This document shows, piece by piece, positions 1-59,534 of a stretch of DNA of 64,000 nt. The translations under genes were made by a program, and so were the position numbers. Each line of letters starts with the position of its first letter. Positions within the stretch are counted from its first letter, which is position 1. Below the pieces are notes generated by a model. That model searched no databases. It worked only from the letters and a program-made list of their open reading frames with translations, and was not told where the DNA came from. The stretch lies in the sequence record ON184125; one strand, 5' to 3'. Source of the DNA: Escherichia phage PC3.

Positions 1-218
1 GATCTGATGATTGCAAATGTAGAACACTGTCTGTTTGATGAGTCGGTTGATGCGTACTGCCAACCACGGTTCGCAAAAGTCGAGCTAACAAATTGTTGGC
101 CGCCGGAAATGGTTTTTCTATATTGACGTAGAAAGTTAATATTCACGCAAGTTCGCGCTCCGCTTGGTCGCGCACCTTATAACACTAAGGTGTTAACTTT
201 CTTTTCAATAAAAAGTAG

Positions 219-247
219 TTTACATCTATGAAAATGCAGTATATTAT
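219..247 (+). promoter_or_regulatory. sigma70-like early promoter candidate (TTTACA, 17-nt spacer, TATTAT)
   Basis: Hexamers with 17-nt spacing about 70 nt upstream of the first + strand gene; sequence reading only. Confidence 0.35.
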
Positions 248-315
248 GTTCTCACTACACAGTCAGAACAACAATATGCCGCGGATACGGTCTTAATAAC
301 GAAAGGGTTTTTATT

Positions 316-1152
316 ATGTCATATATTCTTCATGTGGAATCTGGAACCAAAATTGAAATTGAAGGCAAAGACGTTGCTGCTATTCAGGCTGAAATCAAAG
401 AAGCAGGTCTGATCATCGGAAACGTTACCCTGCGCCGTATGGTTGAAGGTGTTCTTCAGGCTGCCAACGGCTTCGAACTGATTGAAGGTCTGAGCGCCGA
501 AGAGAAGGAAGAAACCCAGCAGGCTCTGGCGCAAGCCCAAGAGCAAGCCCAAGCTGAAGTATCCCTGAAAGTCGCTGAAACCGTCGATGCTGAAGCACCG
601 ATCTCTGCCGATGCATGTGAAGTCCCAGTGTCCGACGCCCCGGTAGACGCGGTTGAAGATGCCGTCAACGCGGCGCTGGAAGAAGGCAATCAGCCGTCCG
701 ACGCGAAAATCGGTTCCTTGGCGTCTTCGATGCTGAAAGAAGCATCGAAGGGTAAGACCCTGACCCCGCAGGCAGCGCTGGTAGAGCGTAAACGCCGTCA
801 CACCAAACGTGAGGAAATGGTTGACTTGGCTCGCGCTTCTAATCACGGTCCGGTCTTGGCGGCGATTGAAGCTGGTGTTGTCCCCGGCGTGTTCCTGAGC
901 TACGTGAACCCAGACATGCGTTGGTTCCAGTTCCCGGTCACCGAACTGGCTAACCCTGAAAACCTTCACGCTCGCACCAATACGTATGTCGACGTTGCGC
1001 CTATCGTTTCCGGTGGCTGGGGCTTCAGTCTGTACGTGAACGGCAAGTCCTTCACCAAACGTCAGAAGATCAAAGAGTCTGATGCTGAGTCTCTGGTTAA
1101 GGCGATCAATGAATGGCTTCCACAGGCTCTGGCTGAAGCGAAAGCTGTGTAA
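316..1152 (+). CDS. hypothetical protein with acidic low-complexity central region
   Basis: 278-aa ORF; its antisense ORFs look spurious; no recognisable catalytic motif. Confidence 0.5.
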   Translation: MSYILHVESGTKIEIEGKDVAAIQAEIKEAGLIIGNVTLRRMVEGVLQAANGFELIEGLSAEEKEETQQALAQAQEQAQAEVSLKVAETVDAEAPISADACEVPVSDAPVDAVEDAVNAALEEGNQPSDAKIGSLASSMLKEASKGKTLTPQAALVERKRRHTKREEMVDLARASNHGPVLAAIEAGVVPGVFLSYVNPDMRWFQFPVTELANPENLHARTNTYVDVAPIVSGGWGFSLYVNGKSFTKRQKIKESDAESLVKAINEWLPQALAEAKAV

Positions 1153-1170
1153 ATTTAAGTTCAGAAACTG

Positions 1171-1198
1171 TTCAATAGATGAAGGGGTTGCTATAATA
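1171..1198 (+). promoter_or_regulatory. promoter candidate (TTCAAT, 16-nt spacer, TATAAT) followed by AGCAGC
   Basis: -10 TATAAT at 1193-1198; the 12-mer TATAATAGCAGC recurs at 10449-10460 upstream of the ligase gene. Confidence 0.35.
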
Positions 1199-1227
1199 GC
1201 AGCTCCTTTTGTTTATCGGAGCAGTTT

Positions 1228-1887
1228 ATGTCCTACTCCCTGAAGGGGCTGATGAAGCGCCCCGTCCACACATTCTTTAAACCACCCGTCGTAAAGGGGA
1301 TCTACCCAGCACGAGGGCAAATCTACTACGTCAAAGGCTCCAATGGTAGCGGTAAATCCACTGTGCCGTCTCAGCTGGCGGAGAGGGATCCTCAGGCGTA
1401 TGTCGTGACCCATAACGGCAAGGTAATGCTGACTGTCTGTCCTTCGTTCAACGTGGTCTGTATCGGTAAATATGACAAGTCGAAGTCCAAGGGGGTTGAT
1501 TCCCTGAAGGACACTGAGCAGATGTTGTTCGCGTTGTCTATTGCTGACCAACCAGAATACTTGAAATATGATGTGATTTTCGAAGGTATCATTCCATCCA
1601 CATTATTGAGTTCTTGGATCCCCCGCCTGACACGCCCACCACGTGAATTGGTTGTGCTCTTTATGGACACTCCCCTTGAAACGTGTATCTCCCGCGTTAA
1701 ATCACGTAACGGCGGTGTGGACTTCAATGAAAGTCTGGTGGTCGAGAAGTGGGAGAGAGTTCATGACCATCGTCAACGACATAAAGACTTGTTCCCTACG
1801 GTAGCTGCGGGTATGATGAAGTCTCACGGCCTAACGGTAGACCAGGCTGTGATGGCATTCCTCTGTCGTGATTTTGGGAGTATCTGA
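1228..1887 (+). CDS. P-loop NTPase / nucleotide or DNA kinase (candidate 5-hydroxymethylpyrimidine DNA kinase)
   Basis: Walker A GSNGSGKST; later IGKYDKSKSKG and IFEG motifs shared with the C-terminal domain of the 44142-45740 ORF; TGATG overlap with the downstream hydroxymethylase. Confidence 0.7.
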   Translation: MSYSLKGLMKRPVHTFFKPPVVKGIYPARGQIYYVKGSNGSGKSTVPSQLAERDPQAYVVTHNGKVMLTVCPSFNVVCIGKYDKSKSKGVDSLKDTEQMLFALSIADQPEYLKYDVIFEGIIPSTLLSSWIPRLTRPPRELVVLFMDTPLETCISRVKSRNGGVDFNESLVVEKWERVHDHRQRHKDLFPTVAAGMMKSHGLTVDQAVMAFLCRDFGSI

Positions 1888-2933
1888 TGGAAATCAAAGC
1901 AATTAACAACAATGACATGCTGAAGCAGGCTGTCTTGGCTATCCGTGAATTCGGGATCGAATCTGATCCTGGTAATGCTGAAATAAATACTGATAGCACC
2001 CGCTTCCTTGATGGCGTGACCATAACCGTCGCCGACATCCGTGACCGCTGGCTATCCGTTGAAGGTCGTAACTCATCGGCTATCGCTGCCATCGGCGAGA
2101 CCTTCTGGGTTCTGTCCGGGCGCGATGACGTTCGCTTCCTGTCCCGCGTATTACCTCGCGCTGCTAACTTTTCGGATGATGGGGTAACATGGCGAGCTGC
2201 TTATGGTCCGCGTCTGTACGCCCATGGCCAGCTGGATAGCGTTATCAACCGCCTGCGCAAGAACCCAAACACTCGCCAGGCGTACCTCACCATCTATGAC
2301 CCGGCTCTAGATTCGGATGCTGGTCTGGCGAAGTTCAGCGAGAGCGGCGAAGCAAAGACTAAGGACATGGTGTGTAACCTGGCTCTGTTGTTCGCCATCG
2401 TTGAAGGTCGTCTGAACCTGACGGTCATCAACCGCTCACAGGATGTTCTGTGGGGGATGAGTTCAATCAACTTCATTGAGTTCTCTATTCTTCAGGAAGT
2501 GATTGCTCGGGTGCTGGACGTTGACGTCGGTCAGTACAAGCTATTCTCTAACAATCTTCATTACTACAACAATGAAGTCAGCCAGAAGCAGCTTGGCAAG
2601 ATTACCAAAGACACAAAAGTCACTGGTGGTTTCATCAACTCCATGATTCACTTCACGAACGTGACCAACCAGAACCATATCCGCAATCTGTTCACTGGTG
2701 TGCTTCATCACTGTGATATCGGCAGCCCGTGGGAAACTGTGGTCGCCCACCTGAAGGAATATGATGCTGATCGTGGCCTGATTGTACAGATGGCGTACTG
2801 TCTGCACTGCAAACTGAACGAAAAGCTCATTAACCTGGACCTGATTCAGGATCATGGCTTGAACACCGCGCTCACCCATTCTCCGGTTGACCGCAAGATC
2901 GTTGATCCTAAGTTCCTGGAAGGTGTAGTATGA
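1887..2933 (+). CDS. thymidylate-synthase-family pyrimidine hydroxymethylase (dUMP/dCMP hydroxymethyltransferase-like)
   Basis: TS-fold motifs by eye: RQAYLTIYDP, candidate nucleophile Cys in MVCNLALLF, RSQDVLWGMSSINFIEFSIL resembling TS RSxD...FNI; substrate cannot be assigned. Confidence 0.7.
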   Translation: MEIKAINNNDMLKQAVLAIREFGIESDPGNAEINTDSTRFLDGVTITVADIRDRWLSVEGRNSSAIAAIGETFWVLSGRDDVRFLSRVLPRAANFSDDGVTWRAAYGPRLYAHGQLDSVINRLRKNPNTRQAYLTIYDPALDSDAGLAKFSESGEAKTKDMVCNLALLFAIVEGRLNLTVINRSQDVLWGMSSINFIEFSILQEVIARVLDVDVGQYKLFSNNLHYYNNEVSQKQLGKITKDTKVTGGFINSMIHFTNVTNQNHIRNLFTGVLHHCDIGSPWETVVAHLKEYDADRGLIVQMAYCLHCKLNEKLINLDLIQDHGLNTALTHSPVDRKIVDPKFLEGVV

Positions 2934-3499
2934 TGTACCCAAATCTTGAATTCTTTACGGGGCGCAAACGCTCCGGCAAGGACTTCTGTTTGGAGTCCCT
3001 GATCAGTTACCACCACTTACAGGGTGATATGGACATACAGCGCCTTTCTTTCTCTGATGAACTGCGCCGTGTAGCCAACTACATCTACCCATGGCTCCCA
3101 GCGGAGGTAGAGGATGCCGTGAAGGACGTTCCTTACGTGCACCCTGATAACCCCAAGGGCTTAACTCCACGGCAGATCTGGCTTCATCTAGGCAGCGATA
3201 CGGGCTTGCGTTATGTACAGCCTGATCTGTTCCTGGCATTCTTCAAGCGCTTCCAGCTTCCTCTGGTAGAGCAGAACCCCCACGTCCATTATATCGTGAG
3301 CGATCTGCGTACCCCTCAGGAATATGAATGGGCGCTGAGTACGAAATGTCCTATCACCCGTATTTCAAAGGCCGACCGTGCTGGTATCATAGAGGACGAT
3401 ATAGAGGCTTTCATTGACCAAATGAAAGTGGACTACGAATTCCTCAATCCATTTGATGGTTGGGAACCGTTCGTTAAATTCTACGGAGAACGTAAATGA
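2930..3499 (+). CDS. deoxynucleoside monophosphate kinase (T4 gp1-like)
   Basis: N-terminal FFTGRKRSGKD P-loop resembling T4 gp1 SGVKRSGKD; ATGA overlap with upstream gene. Confidence 0.65.
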   Translation: MMYPNLEFFTGRKRSGKDFCLESLISYHHLQGDMDIQRLSFSDELRRVANYIYPWLPAEVEDAVKDVPYVHPDNPKGLTPRQIWLHLGSDTGLRYVQPDLFLAFFKRFQLPLVEQNPHVHYIVSDLRTPQEYEWALSTKCPITRISKADRAGIIEDDIEAFIDQMKVDYEFLNPFDGWEPFVKFYGERK

Positions 3500-4050
3500 T
3501 CACAGCAGGGCATATCAAAAGCCTGCTCGAACTCCAAAAGGCCACCAACGTGGCCTACTTTGGGGAAGAGTGGAAGAATGTATGGAGTCAGAACGCAGTC
3601 ATCAACTCTATCTATCGTGAGTGGGCAGAGTTCCTTGATGAAACCACCCGTGACTGGAAGGTCTATGGCAACGACATCGGGTTTGACCATACGAACGCAG
3701 TTTATGAACTGGTGGACGTGGTACACTTCATGTTGTGCTTCATCCTTGTGGACCGCACCAAAGGTGAGATCGAAGAAGAATTTGAAGTCCTTAGTAATCG
3801 CGAATTCACCCCATCTGCTTTGGGTGTTGTAGGGCATCACAATGTTACGTACCGCCTTGGGCAATTCATGAACGATCCTTGCGTTGAGACTCTCATGTTC
3901 TTCCTGTCGTCTGCGTGTTCTTATATGGAGATCGACATTGAGACTTACATACTGGCACACAAACGCAAGAACGATCGCAATCGCCTGCGTGCTGCTGGTG
4001 GCGCGGATTACGATAAGTCTGCAGAAACCCCTCTGACCCTGGAGTTCTAA
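3496..4050 (+). CDS. all-alpha NTP pyrophosphatase (dCTPase/dUTPase-like, T4 gp56-type)
   Basis: EWAEFLDE and ELVDVVHFML motifs typical of MazG/dCTPase-type pyrophosphatases; located in the nucleotide-metabolism cluster. Confidence 0.5.
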   Translation: MITAGHIKSLLELQKATNVAYFGEEWKNVWSQNAVINSIYREWAEFLDETTRDWKVYGNDIGFDHTNAVYELVDVVHFMLCFILVDRTKGEIEEEFEVLSNREFTPSALGVVGHHNVTYRLGQFMNDPCVETLMFFLSSACSYMEIDIETYILAHKRKNDRNRLRAAGGADYDKSAETPLTLEF

Positions 4051-4592
4051 TGTTTACAGTCGTCGTTTCATATCATGCAGACAACGCGGCGAACGCATCC
4101 GCTAATTTCGCCGAGCACATCATCGGCGGCGGTCATAATGTATTCCTTACTGAATACACCAGGCCTGTTAAACCGGGCGACGGTCTTTCGGCGACTGTTA
4201 CGCATAAGATCGCCAGCGAGCAACCAGAGTCTCTGTTCAGGATGATCGAAGAGTATGCCGGTGGTGGCATCAAGATACCAGATGAACTGGTAGACGTCTA
4301 TTTTGAAGGCTCGATCTATTACATCCACGCTATGCCAAAGGATGTAACCATTGAACAGATGATGTATATCCTGAATATAGCACTGAACACTGCGTGCATC
4401 AACCGCACGAACTACAACAATCTGCGCAATATGTACCTAACCGACCGGCATAATGACGATGCGTCACTTGTTGAGACAATGTCCCTGAAGAGCATCCAAG
4501 AGGCGGTTAACATTTTGTCCCAGAAGGTTATGGGTGTAGACTTACTAACGACGATTAACAACAAAGAGGAAGTGAAATGGCCAGTTCATTAA
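4050..4592 (+). CDS. hypothetical protein
   Basis: 180-aa ORF, start overlaps upstream stop; no recognisable motif. Confidence 0.5.
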   Translation: MFTVVVSYHADNAANASANFAEHIIGGGHNVFLTEYTRPVKPGDGLSATVTHKIASEQPESLFRMIEEYAGGGIKIPDELVDVYFEGSIYYIHAMPKDVTIEQMMYILNIALNTACINRTNYNNLRNMYLTDRHNDDASLVETMSLKSIQEAVNILSQKVMGVDLLTTINNKEEVKWPVH

Positions 4593-5662
4593 TGGACCGC
4601 ATGCTGAAGGTTGCTAAGAAACACGATGACCAGGCTTCAGTGCTGTCCAAATCCGACGCTCTGGAACCGTCTATCATCTGTTCTACTGGTATTCCCCTGA
4701 TCGATATCGCATGGTCTGGGCGTATTGACGGTGGTCTGATCTCCGGTATCAAGATGATGGTGGGTGATTCCCGTACCTTCAAAACGATGTTCGGTCTGGT
4801 GGACGTCAAGGCGTACATGGACAAGTTCCCTGATGCTATCTGCGTCTTTGCGGACTCAGAAAAGGGTGCCAACGCCGATTACTGGACCTCTATGGGCATT
4901 GACATGGACCGCGTCCTGTACGTACCGATCGACAACGTTGAACAGACCAAGATCCGCTTGCTGCAGATCCTCCAGGAAGTCAAGAAAGGCGACCATGTTA
5001 TAATCTTCATCGACTCTATCAGCCAACTACCCTCCACCAAGGAAGTTGAAGATGCGATCAAAGGGAACGACACTCAAGACATGACCCGCGCCCGTGCCCT
5101 TAACAGCTTCTGGCGTGTCATGACTCCCGAAATCAACAGCAAAAATCTCGTGTGTGTTTGGATCAACTCCTATTACGATGAGATCGGCAACCAATATGCC
5201 GAGCCTAACATCAAAGGCGGCAAACAGGGCTTCTTATCCTCCAACTTGATCTGGTTTATCACCCGTTCTCAGGTGAAGGAAGACAAAGATCTGCTGGGTT
5301 GGAACTTCAACATAAGCATCATGAAAGGTCGCCATGTCAAAGAGAAAGCCAAGCTCCCTGTGACGGTACTGTACAACGGTGGTATTGATCGCTGGAGCGG
5401 CCTGCTTGAGATCGCTCGTGCTCTGGGTTATGTTGATATGCCGTCTTCCGGTTGGTATGTGCGTACAGCCAAGGGTGGTTTCGATCCTGAGAAGGAAAAG
5501 AAATATCAGAAGCGTCAGATGGATGATGATTTCTGGTATCCGCTGCTGGAGAATGTCAACTTCGCCGATGACGTGAAGAAAATGTTCGGTGTTTCTAACG
5601 GTACTGTTATGCCTGCTAACATGCTGGAGCAAATGGACCATGTTATCAACACAAGCGAATAA
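4577..5662 (+). CDS. uvsX: UvsX recombinase (RecA-like strand-exchange protein)
   Basis: Extended similarity to T4 UvsX from memory: FKTMFGL, FPDAICVFADSE, VIIFIDSISQLPSTKEVEDA, DMTRAR, GRHVKEKAKL, NGGIDRWSGLLEIARALGYV. Confidence 0.92.
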   Translation: MASSLMDRMLKVAKKHDDQASVLSKSDALEPSIICSTGIPLIDIAWSGRIDGGLISGIKMMVGDSRTFKTMFGLVDVKAYMDKFPDAICVFADSEKGANADYWTSMGIDMDRVLYVPIDNVEQTKIRLLQILQEVKKGDHVIIFIDSISQLPSTKEVEDAIKGNDTQDMTRARALNSFWRVMTPEINSKNLVCVWINSYYDEIGNQYAEPNIKGGKQGFLSSNLIWFITRSQVKEDKDLLGWNFNISIMKGRHVKEKAKLPVTVLYNGGIDRWSGLLEIARALGYVDMPSSGWYVRTAKGGFDPEKEKKYQKRQMDDDFWYPLLENVNFADDVKKMFGVSNGTVMPANMLEQMDHVINTSE

Positions 5663-5969
5663 CAGTGGAGGGGGAGGAGACTCCCCCAATAACTACACAA
5701 TCATCGACCCTGGTGCTGATCAGCTGGCGATCATCAAGATCACTTCTGGCAAATTCCGTGGTGTTCAATTCCGGTTCGGCAAGGTGGCCATCAACGAAGT
5801 GGACTGCGAACCCCGCCTGTCTTTCGTGACTGATATATTGAAGAAACCATTGCGTCTGATGTTTGTGAATTTGAAAGAAAATGACTTGTTCACTGAGGTG
5901 TCAGGGGATATCCTTGTAGACCTCATGCAGCGTAATGCTCAGGAATATAATAAATTTTTGGTGGGGTAA
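5640..5969 (+). CDS. hypothetical small protein (start uncertain)
   Basis: ORF between uvsX and the helicase; in-frame ATG at 5640 overlaps the uvsX 3' end; a GGGGGAG/CTCCCCC hairpin lies inside the 5' region. Confidence 0.3.
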   Translation: MLSTQANNSGGGGDSPNNYTIIDPGADQLAIIKITSGKFRGVQFRFGKVAINEVDCEPRLSFVTDILKKPLRLMFVNLKENDLFTEVSGDILVDLMQRNAQEYNKFLVG

Positions 5970-5976
5970 GTGGCCA

Positions 5977-7401
5977 ATGTTACTCGAATCTGTCGTGCTT
6001 TCACAGTTGATTTACAATGAAGATTACCAAAGAAAGATCCTGCCGTACCTGAAAGCCGATTATTTTGACAACGAAGGCGAAAAGGTCATCTTTGGTCTGA
6101 TTGACAGTTATACCTCAGAGTACAATGCCCGCCCGTCTGTCGAAGCACTATCTATAATTCTTGAACGGACAAAGCTGAACGAATATGTGTTTGACCAGGC
6201 GGTATCTGCCCTGGAGAACATCAACGACAACACCTTCAATGAAGAGTGGCTGGCGAAGGAAACCGAGGCTTGGGCGCGACAAAAGGCCGTACACAACGCA
6301 ATCAAGACCGCCGTTAACATCTACGGTGACGAGAAGCGCAAGGACGAGATGAACAACATCCCGACCATGTTGCAGGAAGCCCTGGCTATCCGGTTTGATT
6401 CATATCTCGGTCACATCTATTGGGAGATGGCGGCAGAGCAGTATGACCACATGAACTCCAACGAGGCCAAGATCCCGTTCGCAGTTGAGATCTTCAATAA
6501 GGCGACACGTGGTGGCGTTGGTAAGAAGACACTGAACATCGTAACAGGTGCGATCAACGCAGGTAAGACCACAACGCTGATTGACCTGACCGCAGGGTAC
6601 TCGGAGCAGGGGCTGAACGTCTTTGTCTTCACCCTTGAAGTGGCCGAGAACGTCTGGCGACACCGTCTTGATGCCCGTATCATGCGTCGCGACTTTGAGT
6701 CTTTAGAGAAACTCACAAGGCACGAGTATATTGCAACGATAGAGAAGCTCCGCAGTCGCCAAGATGGTGCGCCCAAGGGTGATATCGTCATCAAGGAATA
6801 TCCTTCCGGTACTGGACACACAGGTTTATTCCGCCGCGATATCCTTGAGTACATCCAGGCAACTGGTCGTGCTCCTGATGTTATCGTTATTGACTATCTT
6901 GGCGAAGCTGCTTCCTCGCGCCTGCCTGCCCACCTGATGCAGAACACGAACGTCTATTACACGTCTGTGGCTCGTGAGTTTCGTGCGCTGGGATTTGAGT
7001 TTGATGTCCCTGTATGGACTGGTATGCAGTTCAATCGTGAGAATCAGAATAGCACTGATGGTGGAATCAGTGATTTGGCAGATGCTATCGGTATTCCGAA
7101 GGTGGCCGACTTCATCATGGCATTCTATGCTCCTGACGAACTGGCGGCGGTCAAGAAAGCCCGAGCCTCAATACTCAAGAACCGTTATGCCAACAAGCAG
7201 AAGCTGAAATCATTCCTGTTTGGTATGGACCAAGACAAACAGATCCTGTTTGACCTGGACTGGAATGAAGTTAAGAAGGACCTGACTGAGGCTGAGGCCA
7301 AATATGTCGAAAACGTACACATCAAACATGACCTCAACAAGTCCGGAGCTGCTGCCAGCGATGAGCAGAAAGCCCAAACGGTCAATAATTGGAAATTCTA
7401 G
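5977..7401 (+). CDS. replicative DNA helicase (T4 gp41 / DnaB family)
   Basis: N-terminus resembles T4 gp41; Walker A TGAINAGKTT; start placed at MLLESVV giving 474 aa (T4 gp41 is about 475 aa). Confidence 0.85.
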   Translation: MLLESVVLSQLIYNEDYQRKILPYLKADYFDNEGEKVIFGLIDSYTSEYNARPSVEALSIILERTKLNEYVFDQAVSALENINDNTFNEEWLAKETEAWARQKAVHNAIKTAVNIYGDEKRKDEMNNIPTMLQEALAIRFDSYLGHIYWEMAAEQYDHMNSNEAKIPFAVEIFNKATRGGVGKKTLNIVTGAINAGKTTTLIDLTAGYSEQGLNVFVFTLEVAENVWRHRLDARIMRRDFESLEKLTRHEYIATIEKLRSRQDGAPKGDIVIKEYPSGTGHTGLFRRDILEYIQATGRAPDVIVIDYLGEAASSRLPAHLMQNTNVYYTSVAREFRALGFEFDVPVWTGMQFNRENQNSTDGGISDLADAIGIPKVADFIMAFYAPDELAAVKKARASILKNRYANKQKLKSFLFGMDQDKQILFDLDWNEVKKDLTEAEAKYVENVHIKHDLNKSGAAASDEQKAQTVNNWKF

Positions 7402-7465
7402 GCAATTCAATAAAGCGGGTCATAGGGTATAATTCTATGATCTGAATGTAAACCAGGAGCACATC

Positions 7466-7801
7466 ATGTCACACAATGATTTTATGGCTGGCCTGGTGCA
7501 GGCCGCCAAACAGGTGTGCCACACCAAACAAGCGATTGAGCTGAGTCCGGAGCAGACTCTGGAGTTCTTCAACAATCGTAAAATCTGGGAGGAATATGGA
7601 ATTGGTATGATATGCCAAGAGGGTGAACTCGTACAGCTGGATCTACCGTCATTTCCCCTTCCAGTGCGCACCAACACAGTGGAATGGTATACGACGGAAG
7701 ATGGTGTAGAGATCATCCCGAAGTTCCAGTATCACTCAATCGTAAACTTCTTTTTACGCCGTTGCGGGACTAATCTGATCCCACAAGGTATGAGATCTTA
7801 A
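7466..7801 (+). CDS. hypothetical protein
   Basis: 111-aa ORF preceded by TATAAT at 7428-7433 and RBS-like AGGAG. Confidence 0.45.
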   Translation: MSHNDFMAGLVQAAKQVCHTKQAIELSPEQTLEFFNNRKIWEEYGIGMICQEGELVQLDLPSFPLPVRTNTVEWYTTEDGVEIIPKFQYHSIVNFFLRRCGTNLIPQGMRS

Positions 7802-7816
7802 CAAGAGGAACACCAA

Positions 7817-8131
7817 ATGTCTGTAGAACAAATCGGCTTTTATGTACTACCATCTGATCCTGAATCCCGTCGCAAGCTGATAGGTGCAATTGAAAACTGT
7901 CGTGCCGCCCAGGTCCGCATCAAGTCGGAACAGACTTTCATTACTGAGACTCTGGCCGAGCTGGCGAAAGACACGGGTATCAAGGCCAGCGACTTGCGCA
8001 AGGTTGTATCCGACCGCGCCAATGGAACTTACCATAAGACGATCGAAACGAGCGAGAAATATCAAGACTTATACGAGTCTCTATTCCCGAACGCCAAGCC
8101 CGATCGAGACCCGAATGTCAGTGGCGAATAA
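7817..8131 (+). CDS. hypothetical protein
   Basis: 104-aa ORF with RBS-like AGAGGAA upstream. Confidence 0.45.
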   Translation: MSVEQIGFYVLPSDPESRRKLIGAIENCRAAQVRIKSEQTFITETLAELAKDTGIKASDLRKVVSDRANGTYHKTIETSEKYQDLYESLFPNAKPDRDPNVSGE

Positions 8132-8224
8132 GTCAATCGAACACCAAGAAGCCCAGTCAAGTACTGGGCTTTTTACTTCAATAACTTTACTTTCAAGAAA
8201 TAATCGCCTAATATTTAATCTGTA

Positions 8225-9451
8225 TTGAAGAGTTACAACTACATCATGAGGCTGGAAATGAACGTCAAAACATTCAATATTCCGATCGACAATGAAGGGT
8301 TGGTAGTTGAGCGACTGAAGAAGCTCGAGCGCACTGCCGAAAGGTTGGGTGTTCCGTTTCCGACTGTGACTTATGGTGAACCCTTCAAAACCCACACCCG
8401 CGACTTCACTGGTGAGATCATTACTCACTGGTGGAAACCTGTTACTCTTGAAGGCGAAGGCATTGACCGCCCCGTCTCTTATGGTGGCTGGAAGATCATC
8501 GGTCAGTTCAATCACGAATATCCAAAGGTTATTCTTAACCGCCTGTCCGACAACATCAATCCTGACTTCATCCGTCGCTTCGAGACAGAGAACGTCTCTT
8601 GGTGTCAGCATTGCAATCTAGCCATCCGTCGCAAGAACACGTATGTGATTGAAAATGAGGAAACGCATACCCAGATGCTGATTGGTAGCACCTGTATGCA
8701 TCATTATGTACCTCATCAGAAATCGCTTGACGCGATTATGTCTTACTATCTGGGGATCCAAGAGTTCTTCATGCCAGAAGAGGACGACCCAGAGGGTATA
8801 TATCGCGTCCAAAATGAGCGCTTCACCGATACCCACAGTTACCTGCGCGCATGCTTCCAGGTGATGCTGGCAGGCGTGGATATCAAGTCTGAACTGTTTG
8901 ACAAAGTACTGGGCTATGTCCGGTCTCACCAGAAACCAAAAGCAGGTTCCGATGAAGAGTATTTCGTAAACAAGGCACACGAATACCGTGAAGATGCCGA
9001 GTCGGAAATGTACCATATGAAGCTCTTCATCAGTGCGCTGTCCGAATCTAATGAGTTCAATGTTCGCCTGAAACGCATGTGTGAACCCGGCTATCACCTC
9101 ATCAAGGATAACAACACAGTCCGCTGGGGTGCCAAGAAGTATTACGATTACATCCATCGTCCTCGTACTGACCGCAAGGCGGAGAACAAATGGGTGGGTG
9201 AAGTCGGTGAAATGCTGGAAGTGCAAGTCAGGTTCGACAAGCGCACCTTTCTCTTCTCCAATGAATATGGTGATAGTTACCTGTTTACTTTCAAAACAGC
9301 AGAAGGCAATACAATTACCTGGAAGACCTCTTATATGGATACAGAGTTCTTGCAGGGCGATATGATCATCCGTGGTCGTGTCAAAGAACTGACTGAGTAC
9401 AACGGCGTTAAACAAACTCAGGTCACTAGAGCCAAATTGAGGAAATTATGA
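8225..9451 (+). CDS. hypothetical protein (Cys/His-rich central segment)
   Basis: 408-aa ORF; WCQHCNL...STCMHHY cluster may bind metal; no family assignment. Confidence 0.55.
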   Translation: MKSYNYIMRLEMNVKTFNIPIDNEGLVVERLKKLERTAERLGVPFPTVTYGEPFKTHTRDFTGEIITHWWKPVTLEGEGIDRPVSYGGWKIIGQFNHEYPKVILNRLSDNINPDFIRRFETENVSWCQHCNLAIRRKNTYVIENEETHTQMLIGSTCMHHYVPHQKSLDAIMSYYLGIQEFFMPEEDDPEGIYRVQNERFTDTHSYLRACFQVMLAGVDIKSELFDKVLGYVRSHQKPKAGSDEEYFVNKAHEYREDAESEMYHMKLFISALSESNEFNVRLKRMCEPGYHLIKDNNTVRWGAKKYYDYIHRPRTDRKAENKWVGEVGEMLEVQVRFDKRTFLFSNEYGDSYLFTFKTAEGNTITWKTSYMDTEFLQGDMIIRGRVKELTEYNGVKQTQVTRAKLRKL

Positions 9452-9564
9452 ATTTGATTGAGTTTGTTCTGAAGTCGTTCGCCTTTGGTCTGATAGCATG
9501 TGGGATGATTACAGCTATGCTTCTCATCATAGCCCTGGTCATCCCCTTTAAGAGGAAACGCTGA
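9448..9564 (+). CDS. small hydrophobic peptide (38 aa)
   Basis: ATGA-coupled to the upstream gene; translation is mostly hydrophobic (single TM helix). Confidence 0.25.
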   Translation: MNLIEFVLKSFAFGLIACGMITAMLLIIALVIPFKRKR

Positions 9565-9776
9565 TGGAATGTTCATGCGGAGGGCAGGGCACAAGTGCTT
9601 ACCTGCCATTCACCACTGTGAAGGAAGCCGAAGCCGCCGGATTTGCCGTAAGCAAGGCTCCCTGTGTAATCGCCACGAAGGATTGCCCGTGCTGTAAGAG
9701 GCACTCTCAGGACGTCTTCTACGCCCCTGATGCGCGTCCGGCTACGGTCAACCTACTCTCACTGATGAGGAAGTGA
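9564..9776 (+). CDS. small Cys-rich protein
   Basis: 70-aa ORF with CSCGG...CPCC motifs. Confidence 0.3.
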   Translation: MECSCGGQGTSAYLPFTTVKEAEAAGFAVSKAPCVIATKDCPCCKRHSQDVFYAPDARPATVNLLSLMRK

Positions 9777-10028
9777 CATGCGCAAGTATTTCAATTGGCT
9801 GTTGGCAAGCCCCTGATGCGCTGAGATCCGTTGTCTAATCGATGCCATTGACGCCAAGGCTGTTTACAAAGCCCTCTCCCGACATCACAAGCGCTAGATT
9901 AATCGCACAGAGGCTCAGGCCGAAATTAAAAATCGTGAAGAAGTCCACAAGGCTCTGGGTTTCATAACAAATAATTCAATAAACTATTCACCCATATAAT
10001 ACATGGGAACTTACAGAAGGAACAGACC

Positions 10029-10370
10029 ATGACTACACTCGTAGAAACATTATTCCCAGGCTGCGTGCTTGGGCGCGGCGGATCCGAAGCCAACGGGCTA
10101 CCGATTGACGTCGAACCTCAGAACTGTGTTATTGTTGACAAGTTTCACGACAACCATTATGTCCTGAACAATCGTCGTGACCACTATCTTGTTTCCGTAG
10201 GAGATTCTTTGGTCAGTCTGCGCATCTGCAAGGCTATGCCAGGATCCGGCTATGGAGCATTCGCCTATATTCACAGCGTGTCAAATGACGAGCTGGGTAA
10301 AGAAGCTCTGGTTGAAAAATTCAAGAGTTGGAAGGATTCTTTCACCTCAATTGAACCTCCGAAGAAATAA
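10029..10370 (+). CDS. hypothetical protein
   Basis: 113-aa ORF with RBS AGAAGGAA and upstream TATAAT at 9995-10000. Confidence 0.45.
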   Translation: MTTLVETLFPGCVLGRGGSEANGLPIDVEPQNCVIVDKFHDNHYVLNNRRDHYLVSVGDSLVSLRICKAMPGSGYGAFAYIHSVSNDELGKEALVEKFKSWKDSFTSIEPPKK

Positions 10371-10483
10371 CTGAGGACTACACACTGACCTCATTATCGG
10401 TCAGGCAAAATCTCACACCCGCCAATAATCTATTGAAGTCCCCAGGGTTATAATAGCAGCACATATAACCCTGGAGACACCAC

Positions 10484-11908
10484 ATGATCCCTATCCTTGA
10501 AATAGTCCACCGACTTCGCGAAACCAAAGGCAGCAATGCGAAGAAAGCTGTGCTGACCGAAGCATTCAAGAACAACCCAGACTTGGCAGACTTCCTGCAA
10601 TATGTCTATGACCCAATGACGTCGTTCTATCGGACTGAGTTGAAGCTCAGCGCGTACCCTCGCATGCTCGTCCGTGAGAAGACTGATGACATCAGCGAAG
10701 TCTATGACGTCCTCGACCAGATGGCACAGCGCCTTGTCGGTGGCCAAAAGGCTGATGCCCTGTTGGCCTCTGTCGCCCTGAAGATGGATCCCCAATACCA
10801 CGAACTCATTCAGATGATCCTAGACCGTGATATCAAGGCGGGTATCGCAGAGAAGGGCATCAACGCTGCATTCAACGCCGCCGGAGGCACTGGACGCCTG
10901 ATCAACATTCTTCCGTATCATCGTTATGACAACATGACGATTGACCTGCTGAAGAAGATGGACTTCAAGCGCGGCGTCTACAGCCAGCTGAAGTCAGACG
11001 GTATGTTCGCCAACATCATATGTCGGTACAATAAAGAGCCTGAGATTCGCTCTCGCTCCGGTTCCCTTATCGCAGGTGGTTCGGTTGATAACCTTTCACT
11101 GGTGTTCAAAGACCTGATCTACGATGCGGGGATTGGTGAGAGTGTGTTCCATGGTGAACTTCTCGTTGTTGACCTCAAGTCTAATACCATCCTGCCTCGT
11201 GCTGTCGGTAACGGTAAACTCAACAGCGTGATTCAGACAGGAGAACCCCTAGAAGATCGTTATCGGGTGATCTACCGGGTGTGGGATGTTGTGCCGTATG
11301 AACAATGGTTCAACGCCCAGCGCGTGGATACCCCGTATGAGCGCCGCTTCGATATTATCCAGCAACTGTTTGATGAAGACGACGGTCTGGTTCAGGTTCA
11401 AGAAACCCGCGTTGTTCACTCATTTGCCGAAGCCGTCGACCACTTCAAAGACGCGCTGGCTCGCAAAGAAGAAGGCACGATATGTAAGGCCGCCGACATG
11501 CCTTGGGAAGATGGGACTTCTTCTGAAGGTCTGAAGCTGAAGATGGAGGTTGAGTGTGACCTTGAAATCGTGGGCTTCAACGAGGCCGACAAGAAGGGTA
11601 AACACGCCAAGACTTTTGGCTCACTGATTTGTAAAACTTCCGATGGCTTGCTTGTTGTTGGTGTATCAGGGATCTCAGATGAGCTGAGACGCCATATGTG
11701 GGAGAACCAGGGCGACTACATTGGCAAGATCGCCGCAGTGCTCTCCAATGGCGTACAGGATAAGACAGATGATGCGATGAAGTCTTTGTTCCTACCTCGC
11801 CTTGTAGAAGTCCGCATTGACAAGAAAGTGGCCAACACACTGGATGAAGTCTATGCGATACAGAAAGCGTACATTGAAAACATCGCATTCCTGTTGGAGT
11901 CTGCATAA
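10484..11908 (+). CDS. ATP-dependent DNA ligase
   Basis: N-terminus resembles T4 DNA ligase; adenylation motif around LKSDGMF (KxDG). Confidence 0.88.
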   Translation: MIPILEIVHRLRETKGSNAKKAVLTEAFKNNPDLADFLQYVYDPMTSFYRTELKLSAYPRMLVREKTDDISEVYDVLDQMAQRLVGGQKADALLASVALKMDPQYHELIQMILDRDIKAGIAEKGINAAFNAAGGTGRLINILPYHRYDNMTIDLLKKMDFKRGVYSQLKSDGMFANIICRYNKEPEIRSRSGSLIAGGSVDNLSLVFKDLIYDAGIGESVFHGELLVVDLKSNTILPRAVGNGKLNSVIQTGEPLEDRYRVIYRVWDVVPYEQWFNAQRVDTPYERRFDIIQQLFDEDDGLVQVQETRVVHSFAEAVDHFKDALARKEEGTICKAADMPWEDGTSSEGLKLKMEVECDLEIVGFNEADKKGKHAKTFGSLICKTSDGLLVVGVSGISDELRRHMWENQGDYIGKIAAVLSNGVQDKTDDAMKSLFLPRLVEVRIDKKVANTLDEVYAIQKAYIENIAFLLESA

Positions 11909-12123
11909 TGAAAGTGTATTTGCTGCAGTATCATGATGGGTGTGACGGTCTACAGGTTCAATCCGTGTCCGGGACGCCAGAGGACGCCCAAAACTCCTTT
12001 CTTGAGAAAGCAGAGGCCTGGGGATTTACCCCAAAAGTGGCGACCCAGCATTTCAGTATTGAGATCTGGGACACAGAGACGGGTTGTTATGTTGATGACC
12101 TGAAAATCGAACTGAAGGGGTGA
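11908..12123 (+). CDS. hypothetical protein
   Basis: 71-aa ORF, start coupled to ligase stop. Confidence 0.4.
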   Translation: MKVYLLQYHDGCDGLQVQSVSGTPEDAQNSFLEKAEAWGFTPKVATQHFSIEIWDTETGCYVDDLKIELKG

Positions 12124-12127
12124 TCTG

Positions 12128-12385
12128 ATGGACGAGCTATTCGCATTGGTGATTGCATTAACGTTCTTACTGTCCTTGATTATCAGCTCGCTTGTGTTGT
12201 TGCTGGTGTGGATAGCTATTCCCGAGATCAATAACCACAAGGCGCTCGTTGTCGTGATTATCCTAGGTCTGAGTGCTTCCCTTACTCTTCACTATTCCAA
12301 ACAGGAGTATAATCCTAACAAATATTACAAGACATTAGCGGACAAGTATCATGAGTTTAAGAATGAAAGAACTTCCGGTAAATGA
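12128..12385 (+). CDS. small membrane protein (2 predicted TM helices)
   Basis: Hydrophobic stretches LVIALTFLLSLIISSLVLLLVWIAI and LVVVIILGLSASL. Confidence 0.4.
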   Translation: MDELFALVIALTFLLSLIISSLVLLLVWIAIPEINNHKALVVVIILGLSASLTLHYSKQEYNPNKYYKTLADKYHEFKNERTSGK

Positions 12386-12602
12386 CAAGAAGTACATGTA
12401 CAAGGTTCTGCTGAGCCTCGGGGTGTCACAATCTGGGCTGGCTCGTTTATTGGATTGTTCTAATGTTGTGAACTACTGGGCGAAGGGTTATCGTGTTGTC
12501 CCCCGCTCCTTCCGTCGCTTCATCCTGGTGTTACAGTTCATCAAGAAGAAAGGGCTGATGGAAGAGTTATTGCAATTTATTAAAGAAGAGGAACGCAAAT
12601 GA
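12351..12602 (+). CDS. HTH (XRE-like) DNA-binding protein
   Basis: LGVSQSGLARLLDCSNVVNYWAKG resembles a Cro/C1-type helix-turn-helix. Confidence 0.4.
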   Translation: MSLRMKELPVNDKKYMYKVLLSLGVSQSGLARLLDCSNVVNYWAKGYRVVPRSFRRFILVLQFIKKKGLMEELLQFIKEEERK

Positions 12603-13294
12603 ACTATACCCGAGCGTTGGTTTCTATCCTTGAAAGGTCTTATTCTCGCAATCTGATTGGGTATTCAGAAAGACACCATAAAGAACCCAGGAGCTTGGGA
12701 GGGACTGATACTGCGGAGAATATTGCTGTTCTAACTGCTCGGGAACATTTCATAGTTCACAAACTTTTGGCCAAGATATTCAGTATGTCTCCTGCATACG
12801 TGAAAATCTTTTCTTTGATGAGAAATATATCAAAATCACAAACTTCACGCCAATACGAAGAGTTCGCTCTCAGAAAATGGGAAAGGGTGAAGACAGCTAA
12901 CAGCACTCCAGAGTTTAAACAAAAATGCAGTGAAAGATTCAAGGGGGTGGCGTTATCCCGTGAACACAGATCGAAAATTTCCGATTCGCTGATGGGCAGA
13001 CCCAAATCAGATTCACAACGTTCCAAATTAAAACAAATCCATTCAAAGCCTTGGGAAAGTCCAAATGCGACACATACCCGCAAATATTGGGCTTTGGCAG
13101 GAATATTCTATGATTGGTGGGTAGCCGATGGTGCCAGGTTAGGCATATGTCGAAATGTAACGATGGTCAAGGAATTGGGGGTGGATCGCGCCGAAATGAC
13201 CGCCAAAAGTTGCATACAAAGATTTCAAAAAGGATGGGTGCCGTACAATGATGAGAATTGGGTTAAGTTTTTCGAGGAAATGAAAAATGCGTGA
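12599..13294 (+). CDS. HNH homing endonuclease
   Basis: HHKEPRSLGGTDTAENIAVLTAREHFIVH HNH motif; C-terminal FQKGWVPYND module shared with the two other endonuclease ORFs. Confidence 0.8.
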   Translation: MNYTRALVSILERSYSRNLIGYSERHHKEPRSLGGTDTAENIAVLTAREHFIVHKLLAKIFSMSPAYVKIFSLMRNISKSQTSRQYEEFALRKWERVKTANSTPEFKQKCSERFKGVALSREHRSKISDSLMGRPKSDSQRSKLKQIHSKPWESPNATHTRKYWALAGIFYDWWVADGARLGICRNVTMVKELGVDRAEMTAKSCIQRFQKGWVPYNDENWVKFFEEMKNA

Positions 13295-18830: not shown

Positions 18831-18880
18831 GGTCTCAGCCCTTAAATAGATAGAGTGTTATGGCTATTTAGGACTAGATT

Positions 18881-37944: not shown

Positions 37945-38020
37945 AGTATAGAAATCCTATCAATGTCAAAGGGGAACATATTGGTTGAGTGGGTATAATA
38001 CGGTGGGTGTCTTCAATTGA

Positions 38021-38736: not shown

Positions 38737-39273
38737 TCATTTCGTTTCCCCCTTGGCAGCATAGGACAGTGCCTGAACAATCATTACAGCCAGATCGATC
38801 GGCGAGTAGGTGCTGTTCAGATCTTCTCGAACACTCTGCTCGATTTCTTCATCAGACTGGACCACAGGACAGTTCTTTCCCTGGCGACGGCGTTCTGTGT
38901 TGATCATATCACGCAGGAGCAGATTGGTGAAGGAGTACTCGTCAAAGTTCTCCAGGTATTTCTGAATCCCAGTGGATACAGGGGTTGGCTCCGGCTCCTT
39001 TGCCCCAGGATCTTTCAGGGCAGCAACAGTGGCATCAATATCCCACAGAGGGTTCATCAGTAACAGAAGATTAACTGTTTCTCCTGACTCTGAAGTCGGG
39101 TTATTTCCCAGCACCTTGTAAAGATTCTTCAGGGTGCTGTCAAAGGTCAGAACGGTCTGTGCCAGTTCTTCATAAGTTGGTTTGGTAGTCATCAGCGTTT
39201 GCTCCGGCGTTTGTTCTTCATCTTTCTTGGCTTGTCTGTCATGTTCCTGTCCACGAAAAAGGGGATAGAGCAA
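38737..39273 (-). CDS. hypothetical protein
   Basis: 178-aa ORF. Confidence 0.45.
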   Translation of the reverse strand: MLYPLFRGQEHDRQAKKDEEQTPEQTLMTTKPTYEELAQTVLTFDSTLKNLYKVLGNNPTSESGETVNLLLLMNPLWDIDATVAALKDPGAKEPEPTPVSTGIQKYLENFDEYSFTNLLLRDMINTERRRQGKNCPVVQSDEEIEQSVREDLNSTYSPIDLAVMIVQALSYAAKGETK

Positions 39274-39292
39274 TAATACCCTATCCCCTTTT
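39256..39292 (-). terminator. long hairpin (AAAAAGGGGATAG...CTATCCCCTTTT) with CAATAATACC loop
   Basis: 13-bp stem flanked by A/T runs on both sides; sits between two minus-strand genes. Confidence 0.5.
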
Positions 39293-39304
39293 ATTGAAGA
39301 ACGA

Positions 39305-42093: not shown

Positions 42094-42128
42094 AAGGGGA
42101 ACGGGCTAATAATAACCCATTCCCCTTT
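42094..42128 (-). terminator. hairpin (AGGGGAACGGG...CCCATTCCCCT) with TAATAATAA loop plus T-run
   Basis: Downstream of small ORF 42154-42321; followed on the minus strand by TTTCTTTT. Confidence 0.45.
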
Positions 42129-42153
42129 ATTGAAGGAAGCAACCCCAGTCAGA

Positions 42154-47202: not shown

Positions 47203-47220
47203 GGGGGAATTATATCCCCC
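47203..47220 (-). terminator. hairpin GGGGGAAT-TATA-TCCCCC downstream of the DNA polymerase
   Basis: Perfect 7-8-bp stem between the polymerase stop (47235) and the next gene start (47181). Confidence 0.4.
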
Positions 47221-47234
47221 TTTGGTTTATTGAA

Positions 47235-55584: not shown

Positions 55585-55606
55585 TAGTGTATCCTCAAAT
55601 CTATGA

Positions 55607-59169: not shown

Positions 59170-59534
59170 TCCGGAGCCTCACTGGATTGATTAAATGTCT
59201 CCGTTATTATATTGGGAGTATGTTTATTGAATATAAACACAGGAATGACCAATAAAATAATGACAGTGATTATTAATAGGTAAAAACTACTTTTCTATAA
59301 CATCAAGAAACTGTATCCTAACGCAGTGCCCTTCGAGTTGTGAGTGTTAACGAACAACGAGAAGCAGCCTCCATGGCTGTGGAATGGTGCTGCCCGCACA
59401 GGGCGGTGTTACGAGCGAGGGCGTCAGCCCCCTCGCGAGTTATATTCGAATAAATTAAACGCGCGCGAGCGTTTTGATTCCCGTTGGCTAAATATCTTCA
59501 ACACCATATTCAAACTCAGGTGATGGAGATTATC

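Follow-up and report, generated by a model that had tools for sequence, protein, structure and literature searches.

A 12-mer repeated before the DNA kinase and DNA ligase genes of Escherichia phage PH4 lies in two different conserved hairpin cassettes that are probably promoters

The window, the whole 64,000-nucleotide stretch of DNA analysed, carries the 12-mer TATAATAGCAGC exactly twice on the + strand, at 1192-1203 and 10449-10460, and both copies are intergenic. The first copy precedes PH4_000111 (1228..1887, + strand), annotated as 5-hmdU DNA kinase (PF18748, E 3.6e-109), which opens a block of nucleotide-metabolism and recombination genes. The second precedes PH4_000124 (10484..11908, + strand), an ATP-dependent DNA ligase gene (PF01068, E 9e-15) with orthologues annotated as gp30 DNA ligase. 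Both genes agree with the P-loop kinase and DNA ligase named in an earlier note, which gave the second copy correctly and placed the first one base off, at 1193-1204. From the first base of the 12-mer to the ATG there are 36 nt at the kinase site (ATG 1228) and 35 nt at the ligase site (ATG 10484), leaving gaps of 24 and 23 nt after its last base. The genome-wide search that the note had proposed was run on the complete 155,895-bp genome of Escherichia phage PH4 (Ackermannviridae, ViI-like) and found the same two copies and no others.

The expectation of 0.01 copies of the 12-mer is valid for a pattern fixed beforehand, not for one chosen post hoc. On the + strand of the window, 290 distinct 12-mers are repeated, against about 150 expected from Markov-1 simulations, and the intergenic DNA of the window contains about 13 repeat locus pairs against about 2.7 by chance. 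Eighteen exact TATAAT hexamers are intergenic in the genome, and the probability that the six bases after the hexamer agree in at least one pair of them is about 153/4096 = 0.04. When the two intergenic regions are aligned locally, only the 12-mer is recovered, and the alignment ranks 54th of 4186 intergenic pairs. At these chance levels, the repeat, though real, is only borderline statistically. Far beyond chance, in contrast to the repeat itself, are the architecture surrounding each copy and its conservation.

At the kinase site, the 12-mer consists of the -10 hexamer TATAAT (1192-1197) and six predicted discriminator bases (-6 to -1), and no base of it changes in four genera. The hexamer belongs to an extended -10 of the TGn type, TGCTATAAT (1189..1197, + strand), invariant in eight phages of four genera. 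The box TTCAATAG (1171..1178, + strand), a variant of TTCAATAA, lies 15 nt before the -10 (pattern match 1171-1197), represents the hallmark TTCAATA box of the family, and is likewise identical in eight phages of four genera. The predicted +1 is a pyrimidine (T1204). The same bases take part in an intrinsic-terminator-shaped hairpin (1181..1216, + strand), composed of the core GGGGTTGC/TATAATA/GCAGCTCC at 1184-1206 and the T-run TTTTGTTTAT at 1207-1216, in which the 12-mer makes up the loop plus the greater part of the 3' arm, AGCAGC being the descending arm. This hairpin (47-nt fold, -18.2 kcal/mol, z -4.1) is picked up by the terminator scan and is labelled 'terminator' in the LIMEstone1 record. 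At the base of an extended hairpin (1165..1227, + strand), GTTC (1170-1173) is moreover paired with GGAG (1218-1221) in the region of the Shine-Dalgarno. The structure is specific to the sense strand (-31.6 kcal/mol, z -6.2, versus -15.4 kcal/mol for the antisense strand), and 93% of cells are paired among eight phages. GCAGC is kept at this site because it is paired with GCTGC in the hairpin; since the box is also paired with the T-run, some of the conservation could serve RNA structure alone. In Table S2 for Shigella phage phiSboM-AG3 (Ag3), the orthologous site, one stem base apart, is listed both as early promoter Porf067, TTcAatagatgaaggggcTGcTATAAT, and as rho-independent terminator Torf069, -16.3 kcal/mol (Anany et al. 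2011, PMC3121705). The two entries were predicted from sequence; their overlap is not discussed there, and the ligase site is not listed (PMC3121705).

At the ligase site, the -10 hexamer TATAAT (10449..10454, + strand) is invariant in 11 phages of four genera. The upstream box ATCTATTGAAG (10428..10438, + strand) contains the TTCAAT box inverted, and a degenerate direct copy, ATCTAT, lies 15 nt before the -10. The core of the box, TCTATTGAAGTC, is the same in seven of 11 phages, five positions varying in one to three phages each. The corresponding class ATTGAAG-N7-11-TAWWWW occurs four times in the window versus 0.13 expected. The last six bases of the 12-mer (10449..10460, + strand), a predicted discriminator, lie in the loop of a hairpin and differ among genera, where AGCAGC is AGCATG, AACAAG, ATAACG or TGGATT. 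The start predicted from the sequence is an A seven nt past the -10 (10461, + strand); A10461 and C10462 are invariant, adjacent bases vary (11 phages, four genera), and RNA from this start is essentially unstructured (MFE -1.3 kcal/mol). The hairpin (10438..10478, + strand; -20.4 kcal/mol, z -5.1) has the arms CCAGGGTTATA (10442-10452) and TATAACCCTGG (10464-10474) with outer pairs GTC/GAC, encloses the Shine-Dalgarno GGAG (10473-10476) and has no T-run downstream. Its inverted repeat folds equally on either strand; 94% of cells are paired among the orthologues, and one pair shows the series A-U, G-U, G-C. Homology of Kuttervirus and Limestonevirus to PH4 starts at 10424-10427, the left edge of this cassette, which is consistent with a module boundary. 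The earlier note had missed that both copies lie within strong conserved hairpins.

TATAAT is unchanged at both sites in Agtrevirus, Limestonevirus, Kuttervirus and Taipeivirus, against a divergence of 20-30% in the coding DNA alongside. Together with the TGn, the TTCAATA box and the early-promoter listing at the first copy, this supports the -10 part of the proposal in the earlier note, TATAAT behaving as such an element. No canonical -35 was found at either site, and a scan for TTGACA-N16-18-TATAAT calls neither; TTCAAT, with a gap of 14-15 nt to the -10, stands too close to be an ordinary -35. Of all 8-mers in the genome, TTCAATAA shows the strongest intergenic enrichment, with 24 of its 32 copies in the 8.9% that is noncoding, and TTCAATA-N10-14-TAWWAT occurs six times in the window versus 0.02 expected, every match being intergenic and aimed at a gene. 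The box is found at further distances and orientations too.

Similar to the kinase site, several sister cassettes combine a box and a -10. In one (7406..7445, + strand), TTCAATAA is followed after 14 nt by GGTATAAT in the loop of the hairpin CGGGTCATAG/CTATGATCTG, which lacks a T-run; box and -10 are invariant, and pairing of the stem is kept by compensatory changes at three pairs, a covariation reached in one of 500 shuffles. TTCAATAA-N12-TATAAT matches at 9975..10000 (+ strand), 59206..59231 (- strand) and 47209..47234 (- strand), where the -10 is the loop of AGGGGGA/TCCCCCT and the Ag3 orthologue is Porf237. TTCAATAA-N12-TATTAT matches at 39273..39298 (- strand), where a terminator-like hairpin of 16 bp holds the -10 in its loop, and at 42109..42134 (- strand), with the -10 also in a terminator-like hairpin loop (Ag3 orthologue Torf248). 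Among 68 stable intergenic hairpins, ten have an apex TAT[AT]AT oriented to the downstream gene, and at most one has it in reverse only; the ligase site is an eleventh, counted apart since part of its TATAAT belongs to the arm. Across the two sites and the sister hairpin, 93-96% of cells are paired in orthologues, with fold z of -4.1 to -6.2 at the two sites. Covariation at the two sites is not significant, because their sequences are so conserved.

Architectures of this kind are known from other phages. T4 middle promoters consist of a MotA box at -30 and a sigma-70 -10, used by AsiA/MotA sigma appropriation, with an 8-9-nt box, about 12 nt, the -10, and no -35. The box-gap--10 geometry of PH4 matches this, also upstream of nucleotide-metabolism and replication genes. 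However, TTCAATAA bears no relation to the MotA box (TGCTT) and occurs at other distances and orientations as well, and MotA and AsiA are reportedly absent from ViI-like phages. Also similar are the promoter-early stem-loops (PeSLs) of the T4-type phages RB49, phi1, T4/PST and KVP40/nt-1, in which a stem-loop overlaps the -10 box, a Shine-Dalgarno and ATG stand at the 3' end, and promoter and terminator activity were demonstrated by reporter fusions (Arbiol et al. 2010, PMC2839356; Comeau et al. 2014, PMC4122927). Shared features are intergenic regions of about 50-100 nt, a sigma-70-type -10 overlapped by a G+C-rich stem-loop, Shine-Dalgarno and ATG at the 3' end, many genome copies, placement at the edges of variable gene modules, and a terminator for the upstream unit coupled to a promoter for the next, the last being only predicted in PH4. 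PeSLs differ in having a consensus TTGACA-type -35 and an AT-rich upstream region, whereas PH4 cassettes have a TTCAATAA-type box at 14-16 nt or none; they precede ORFans and are near-identical repeats, whereas the kinase and ligase sites precede conserved core genes and are single-copy, conserved across genera. We found no description of PeSLs in Ackermannviridae in the literature. Likewise, longer transcripts of the T4 genes e, soc, 49 and I-TevI have their ribosome binding site masked by a hairpin, and a promoter is placed within that hairpin (review: Uzan and Miller 2010, PMC3014915). There, too, the 5' strand of the Shine-Dalgarno helix lies upstream of or overlaps the promoter, and internal transcripts without it should be translatable. 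Those promoters are late (gp55, TATAAATA) and serve late or lysis genes, whereas those of PH4 are predicted sigma-70-type TATAAT elements before DNA-metabolism genes.

The two copies probably mark two different single-copy cassettes, conserved across the family, each with a host-type (sigma-70-like) TATAAT at the apex of a stable stem-loop directly upstream of the Shine-Dalgarno and start codon, an internal start and an insulated downstream gene. Such a cassette would comprise a TTCAATAA-type box upstream, the -10 at the hairpin apex and the Shine-Dalgarno paired within the hairpin. The box may be a family-specific promoter element, and its reader could be sigma region 4 or a phage factor. The 12-mer would then be the -10 hexamer with six discriminator bases, and the identity past TATAAT would be incidental, by chance or by local homogenisation within Aglimvirinae. 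RNA polymerase coming from upstream genes would transcribe the entire inverted repeat. At the kinase site, the hairpin and T-run would terminate or attenuate the incoming transcript, and in read-through RNA the Shine-Dalgarno would be paired at the base of the longer hairpin. At the ligase site, where the T-run is absent, the hairpin would bury GGAG, and poor translation of read-through RNA is expected. Transcripts of the internal promoter would start about 7 nt past TATAAT, in the loop or 3' arm, and would lack the 5' arm, so that their ribosome binding site should be open. In the searched literature, no transcription start, termination or translation data were found for any Ackermannviridae phage.

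The hairpins could instead be purely RNA elements (terminator, attenuator, processing or stability signal, translational operator) whose TATAAT-like apex is no promoter and no start. The kinase site passes terminator criteria, is annotated as a terminator in several records and forms a sense-strand-specific structure with many G-U pairs, and the missing canonical -35 points the same way. Nonetheless, this is unlikely, as terminator loops normally vary freely and TATAAT is invariant beside changing loop bases, the apex is biased 10-11 vs 0-1 toward the downstream gene, the spacing to the TTCAATA box is fixed, and the T-run is missing at the ligase site and at 7406-7445. Without these sites, long early-gene blocks would also be promoterless, a gap already noted for CBA120.

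It is quite doubtful that the 12-mer arose by recombination or gene conversion between cassettes, as in PeSL-type exchange, and so reflects shared ancestry instead of a shared function or coincidence. PeSL cassettes do recombine mutually, other PH4 cassettes have near-identical stretches of 40-90 nt in common, inter-genus homology breaks at the ligase cassette edge, and identity between the two sites declines from 12 nt in Aglimvirinae to 10/12 in most Kuttervirus and 7-8/12 in Taipeivirus. However, the likeness does not extend by a single base past the 12-mer, whose flanks are unrelated on either side, and each core matches only its own locus in about 267 genomes.

Less probable still is the reading of the earlier note, in which the whole TATAATAGCAGC is a conserved -10 and initiation region of a shared promoter class co-regulating the two genes. 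The identical 12-mer stands at equal distance from the start codons of two DNA-metabolism genes, is fully invariant at the kinase site and retains AGCA at the ligase site in Kuttervirus. The initiation-region part is not supported, with two copies genome-wide, AGCAGC replaced at the ligase site in other genera, GCAGC at the kinase site accounted for by pairing, and upstream boxes and hairpin geometry that differ between the sites. Among 96 intergenic -10-like hexamers, no base preference was found at eight positions after the -10, so AGCAGC is not a class-wide initiation region, and a coincidence among 18 TATAAT promoters is not negligible.

Action of the inverted repeats as DNA, extruded as hairpins or cruciforms with a single-stranded -10, like the hairpin promoters that serve the virion RNA polymerase of phage N4 (5-7-bp stem, 3-nt loop), is highly improbable: a dozen cassettes have the -10 at an inverted-repeat apex and the ligase repeat folds equally on both strands, but the kinase site relies on G-U pairs and loses half the energy on the opposite strand, stems of 8-16 bp and loops of 4-11 nt are heterogeneous, many hairpins have T-runs typical of RNA terminators, and the PH4 annotation has no phage RNA polymerase gene.

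Rather than a new shared signal, the promoter-in-hairpin cassette is a type of regulatory element already familiar from phages, and the kinase site was already predicted as promoter and terminator in Ag3 in 2011. Such a cassette would insulate the downstream gene from upstream transcription and provide it with a separate start. Hypermodified thymidine, to whose pathway the kinase belongs, is probably present in the phage DNA, and this modification could alter the reading of a T-rich -10.

Over its first 12 kb, the window matches Escherichia phage PH4 (ON184126.1; Ackermannviridae, Aglimvirinae) with 100% identity. This region shares 91-98% identity with Agtrevirus phages such as Ag3, and 60-80% identity with Kuttervirus (CBA120, Vi01), Limestonevirus, and Taipeivirus. 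Genome-wide counts were made on the complete 155,895-bp PH4 genome, assembled from the record, of which the window spans positions 91896-155895. There are exactly two + strand copies of the 12-mer TATAATAGCAGC, at 1192-1203 (site 1) and 10449-10460 (site 2). The genome-wide search proposed in the earlier note returned only these two copies; the position of the second agrees with that note, which had placed the first one base off. Both copies are intergenic and, counted from the first base, precede their start codons (ATG at 1228 and 10484) by 36 and 35 nt, respectively. The predicted association with a P-loop kinase and a DNA ligase was confirmed, as the gene after copy 1 encodes a 5-hmdU DNA kinase (PF18748, E 3.6e-109), a P-loop enzyme of the thymidine-hypermodification pathway, and the gene after copy 2 encodes an ATP-dependent DNA ligase.

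The 12-mer repeat as such is borderline. On the + strand of the window, 290 distinct 12-mers are repeated, compared with ~150 under Markov-1 random sequence, and ~13 intergenic 12-mer locus pairs were observed versus ~2.7 by chance. The genome contains 18 exact intergenic TATAAT sequences, and the chance of any pair sharing the next six bases is ~0.04. The best local match between these two intergenic regions extends no further than the 12-mer and places them 54th among 4186 intergenic pairs. Allowing up to two mismatches, six matches were found versus 2.7 expected, the extra ones all outside a promoter context. BLAST of the 63-66-nt cores against 50,697 phage records gave no match beyond their own orthologous locus, where each core matches once per genome in ~267 Ackermannviridae records, so neither core is a dispersed repeat. 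Scanning IMG/VR for exact 15-mers gave 120+ and 48 matches on contigs of every size, which corresponds to chance level, and Rfam detected no family at site 1 or site 2. The identity of the 12-mer in itself carries little meaning.

Site 1 comprises the box GTTCAATAG (1171-1178, +), followed by 15 nt ending in TGC, the -10 hexamer TATAAT (1192-1197, +), followed by AGCAGCTCC and then TTTTGTTTAT, and the Shine-Dalgarno sequence GGAG within CGGAGC (1218-1221, +). The stem arms GGGGTTGC (1184-1191, +) and GCAGCTCC (1199-1206, +) enclose the loop TATAATA and are followed by a T-run. The core folds at -18.2 kcal/mol (z -4.1), and the terminator scan called it as an intrinsic (rho-independent) terminator with 13 pairs followed by TGTTTATCGG, located 29 nt past the stop codon of the upstream gene PH4_000110. 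In an 81-nt fold the helix extends, with many G-U pairs, to -31.6 kcal/mol (z -6.2); the additional pairs join the box region to the T-run and GTTC to the Shine-Dalgarno region (GGAG). The opposite strand reaches only -15.4 kcal/mol, so the structure is specific to the sense RNA. Over the stretch that runs from GTTCAATAG to the Shine-Dalgarno sequence, site 1 is almost invariant in 8 phages from four genera, and more conserved than the flanking coding DNA. The few substitutions keep the pairing: Limestonevirus has the perfect arms GGAGCTGC/GCAGCTCC, and in Taipeivirus a G-U pair is moved. An invariant TGC precedes TATAAT, giving the TGn of an extended -10. The opposite strand of the loop, in a near-palindrome, contains a -10-like TATTAT (1187-1198, -), probably a by-product of the inverted repeat since no gene lies in that direction.

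At site 2, the arms CCAGGGTTATA (10442-10452, +) and TATAACCCTGG (10464-10474, +), with outer GTC/GAC pairs, enclose the 11-nt loop ATAGCAGCACA, and the fold reaches -20.4 kcal/mol (z -5.1). Although the stem is present, the hairpin has no T-run and was not classified as an intrinsic terminator. The hexamer TATAAT (10449-10454) spans the 5' arm and the loop. The Shine-Dalgarno sequence GGAG (10473-10476) is inside the helix, with G10473, G10474, and G10476 paired. The predicted RNA from A10461, seven nt past the -10, is essentially unstructured (-1.3 kcal/mol). Among 11 phages from four genera, TATAAT, ATAACCC-GGAG, A10461, and C10462 are invariant, and the upstream box TCTATTGAAGTC is nearly so, being exact in seven of the eleven. 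The bases before TATAAT are GGT, so that of the TGn only the G at -14 is present. One stem pair forms an A-U, G-U, G-C series among the phages; with so little sequence variation, covariation reached significance at neither site. Homology of Kuttervirus and Limestonevirus to PH4 starts at 10424-10427, the left edge of the cassette, and the genes upstream differ. Some 40 nt ahead of the ligase cassette is a second, small hairpin, CTGACC/GGTCAG with the loop TCATTATC (10385-10404, +). Agtrevirus and one Taipeivirus phage keep it; Kuttervirus and Limestonevirus, whose homology does not begin until the edge of the cassette, lack it.

The invariance of TATAAT in the 8 phages compared at site 1 and the 11 at site 2 supports its reading as a -10 element. 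The earlier note had also proposed that the bases after it form a conserved initiation region, and this part did not hold. The eight positions after the -10 showed no base preference among 96 intergenic candidates, and such a region is therefore not part of the class. Moreover, AGCAGC has different structural roles at the two sites: in the predicted fold, GCAGC of copy 1 is the descending hairpin arm, and at site 2 AGCAGC lies within the loop. The six bases at site 2 also vary between genera: Agtrevirus and Limestonevirus have AGCAGC, Kuttervirus has AGCATG or AACAAG, and Taipeivirus has ATAACG or TGGATT. The structural role of the six extra bases differs between the sites, and one site can do without them.

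A consensus sigma-70 scan of 1-14000 called neither site, and its number of hits equalled that in shuffles. TTGACA-like -35 elements were absent 16-18 nt before the -10 at both sites in this consensus scan; the best upstream elements, both at 15 nt, were TTCAAT for site 1 and ATCTAT for site 2. Comparison of intergenic with coding sequence gave TTCAATAA as the top k-mer, with 24 out of 32 genomic copies in the 8.9% of noncoding DNA. Its distance to the best -10 is bimodal. Eight cases are at 14 nt, site 1 is at 15, and two are at 16; the other mode, at 8-10 nt, comprises five cases, each with a T4-early-like TTTACT -35 at 16-17 nt. The separate PH4 cassette type TTTACT-N16/17-TATAMT does carry a -35. 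A TTCAATAA box located 14-15 nt from the -10 is not an ordinary -35. The pattern TTCAATA-N10-14-TAWWAT, which includes site 1, occurs six times in the window versus 0.02 expected, always intergenic and directed towards a gene. Site 2 belongs to a smaller group with an inverted box, ATTGAAG-N7-11-TAWWWW, with four copies versus 0.13 expected.

In many box cassettes the -10 is at the apex of a G+C-rich inverted repeat. Ten out of 68 stable intergenic hairpins have an apex TAT[AT]AT oriented towards the downstream gene (eleven with site 2), and at most one has it only in reverse, a bias that favours a directional signal over loops that are simply AT-rich. At 7406-7445, a sister cassette keeps TTCAATA and GGTATAAT invariant, with compensatory substitutions at three stem pairs. 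This covariation was reached by only one of 500 shuffles, and was significant here but at neither site 1 nor site 2. In the match 37995-38017, the sequence TTCAATTGAA at ~38008-38017 (-) is perfectly palindromic, with TTCAAT fused to inverted ATTGAA, 10-15 nt upstream of a TATTAT; the fusion suggests that the box could be one half of a symmetric binding sequence for a protein.

Two further regions of the window were recorded. The 3 kb at 55585-58599 contain no annotated CDS, and include tRNA-Ser(gct) (55955-56043, -), tRNA-Met(cat) (56297-56373, -), and TTCAAT-type promoter-like sites at 55625 (-) and 57885 (-). The gap of 402 nt that separates the annotated DNA polymerase ORFs PH4_000178 and PH4_000179 contains, at 48882-49269 (-), a full-length match to the Rfam group I intron model RF00028 (58.6 bits); a self-splicing intron thus appears to interrupt the gp43 polymerase gene.

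Among known phage signals, T4 middle promoters have a MotA box with the consensus (a/t)(a/t)(a/t)TGCTT(t/c)A, centred at -30. A middle promoter of the T4 type was rejected, as the box at the two sites is TTCAATAG or ATCTATTGAAG. CBA120, ViI and Ag3 are reported to lack both MotA and AsiA (Kutter et al. 2011). A T4 late promoter, recognised by gp55, was also discarded: the sequence is TATAATAG, not TATAAATA, TATAAATA and CTAAATAC are distinct motifs, and the window contains only one exact TATAAATA. A different motif, CTAAATA(C/T)C, was found 20-40 nt before structural genes (tail spikes, prohead core, baseplate), at 18831-18880 (divergent pair), ~53480 (-), and ~59500 (+), with many others elsewhere in the PH4 genome; unlike T4 TATAAATA, it is a candidate late (gp55-type) promoter consensus of the family. 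An N4-like promoter formed by a DNA hairpin is unlikely, given the strand asymmetry of site 1.

The closest counterparts are the promoter-early stem-loop (PeSL) cassettes of T4-type phages, for which promoter and terminator activity was shown by reporter fusions, and which are sites of modular shuffling (PMC2839356). Similar to PeSLs, both sites have a predicted stem-loop overlapping the -10, with the Shine-Dalgarno sequence and start codon at its 3' end, and at least ten further PH4 cassettes share this layout. However, PeSLs have a consensus sigma-70 -35 and an AT-rich upstream region, and sites 1 and 2 lack a TTGACA-like -35. PeSLs also occur in many copies at module boundaries. In PH4 the architecture recurs, and the break of homology at the left edge of site 2 is in keeping with modular shuffling, whereas sites 1 and 2 are unique and precede core genes. 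The genes downstream of the precedents are ORFans, and the box found here is family-specific. Another ~90-nt early-promoter cassette (51619-51701, +) contains inverted TTCAATAA, TTTACTTCTTCAATAAC, TATACT, and a conserved leader ending in GGAAATACATCATG. Long near-identical relatives lie outside the window upstream of at least three other PH4 genes, at record positions 23724, 68742, and 81153 (local alignment scores 41-90). This repetition far exceeds that of the 12-mer, and comes closer to classical PeSLs.

Part of the arrangement had been predicted previously. The Ag3 orthologue of site 1 was listed as both early promoter Porf067 and terminator Torf069, with no comment on the overlap, and the ligase site is absent from that promoter and terminator list (Anany et al. 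2011, PMC3121705). Site 1 is annotated as 'terminator' in the LIMEstone1 record, and seemingly in the Marshall and Menlow records too. The finding adds an unremarkable example to a known type of phage regulatory cassette, and one of its two copies was already predicted in a close relative.

Each cassette would stop or mask transcripts arriving from upstream and also provide a new start. The hairpin and T-run of site 1 would terminate PH4_000110 transcripts, and the ribosome binding site would be paired in read-through RNA; at site 2, the hairpin would make read-through RNA poorly translatable. Initiation at the TATAAT inside the repeat would give an RNA without the 5' arm, and thus an open ribosome binding site. 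The invariant TGn of site 1 could be used in place of a -35. This unmasking logic is that of the T4 genes e, soc, 49, and I-TevI, in which the Shine-Dalgarno sequence is paired in the long transcript and the promoter RNA lacks the 5' strand, as folding predicts at both sites. A more far-reaching proposal, which we consider doubtful, is that a TTCAATAA-type box ~12-14 nt before a hairpin-apex -10 defines an undescribed, family-wide Ackermannviridae promoter class, with the 12-mer copies as two members. Such promoters would be the functional counterpart of T4 middle promoters, read by the host RNA polymerase with a phage factor replacing -35 recognition (a non-homologous MotA/AsiA analogue), and the hairpin would link termination with insulation of the promoter and with exposure of the ribosome binding site.

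The literature search found no transcription start or RNA-seq data for Kuttervirus, Ackermannviridae or CBA120, and no paper on the TTCAATA motif. Early and middle transcription signals of ViI-like phages were described as not identifiable by informatics (Kutter et al. 2011), and a 2024 review of Ackermannviridae does not mention promoters or transcription. Therefore, the recurring grammar of a TTCAATAA box, a TATAAT at a stem-loop apex, and a Shine-Dalgarno sequence masked in read-through RNA may be useful, and represents a reasonable lead for early and middle promoters of Ackermannviridae. Wide efforts are under way to develop ViI-like phages for biocontrol and as reporters. The grammar yields concrete promoter candidates for genes of DNA modification (5-hmdU kinase) and replication (ligase), and would carry the PeSL idea beyond T4-type phages proper.
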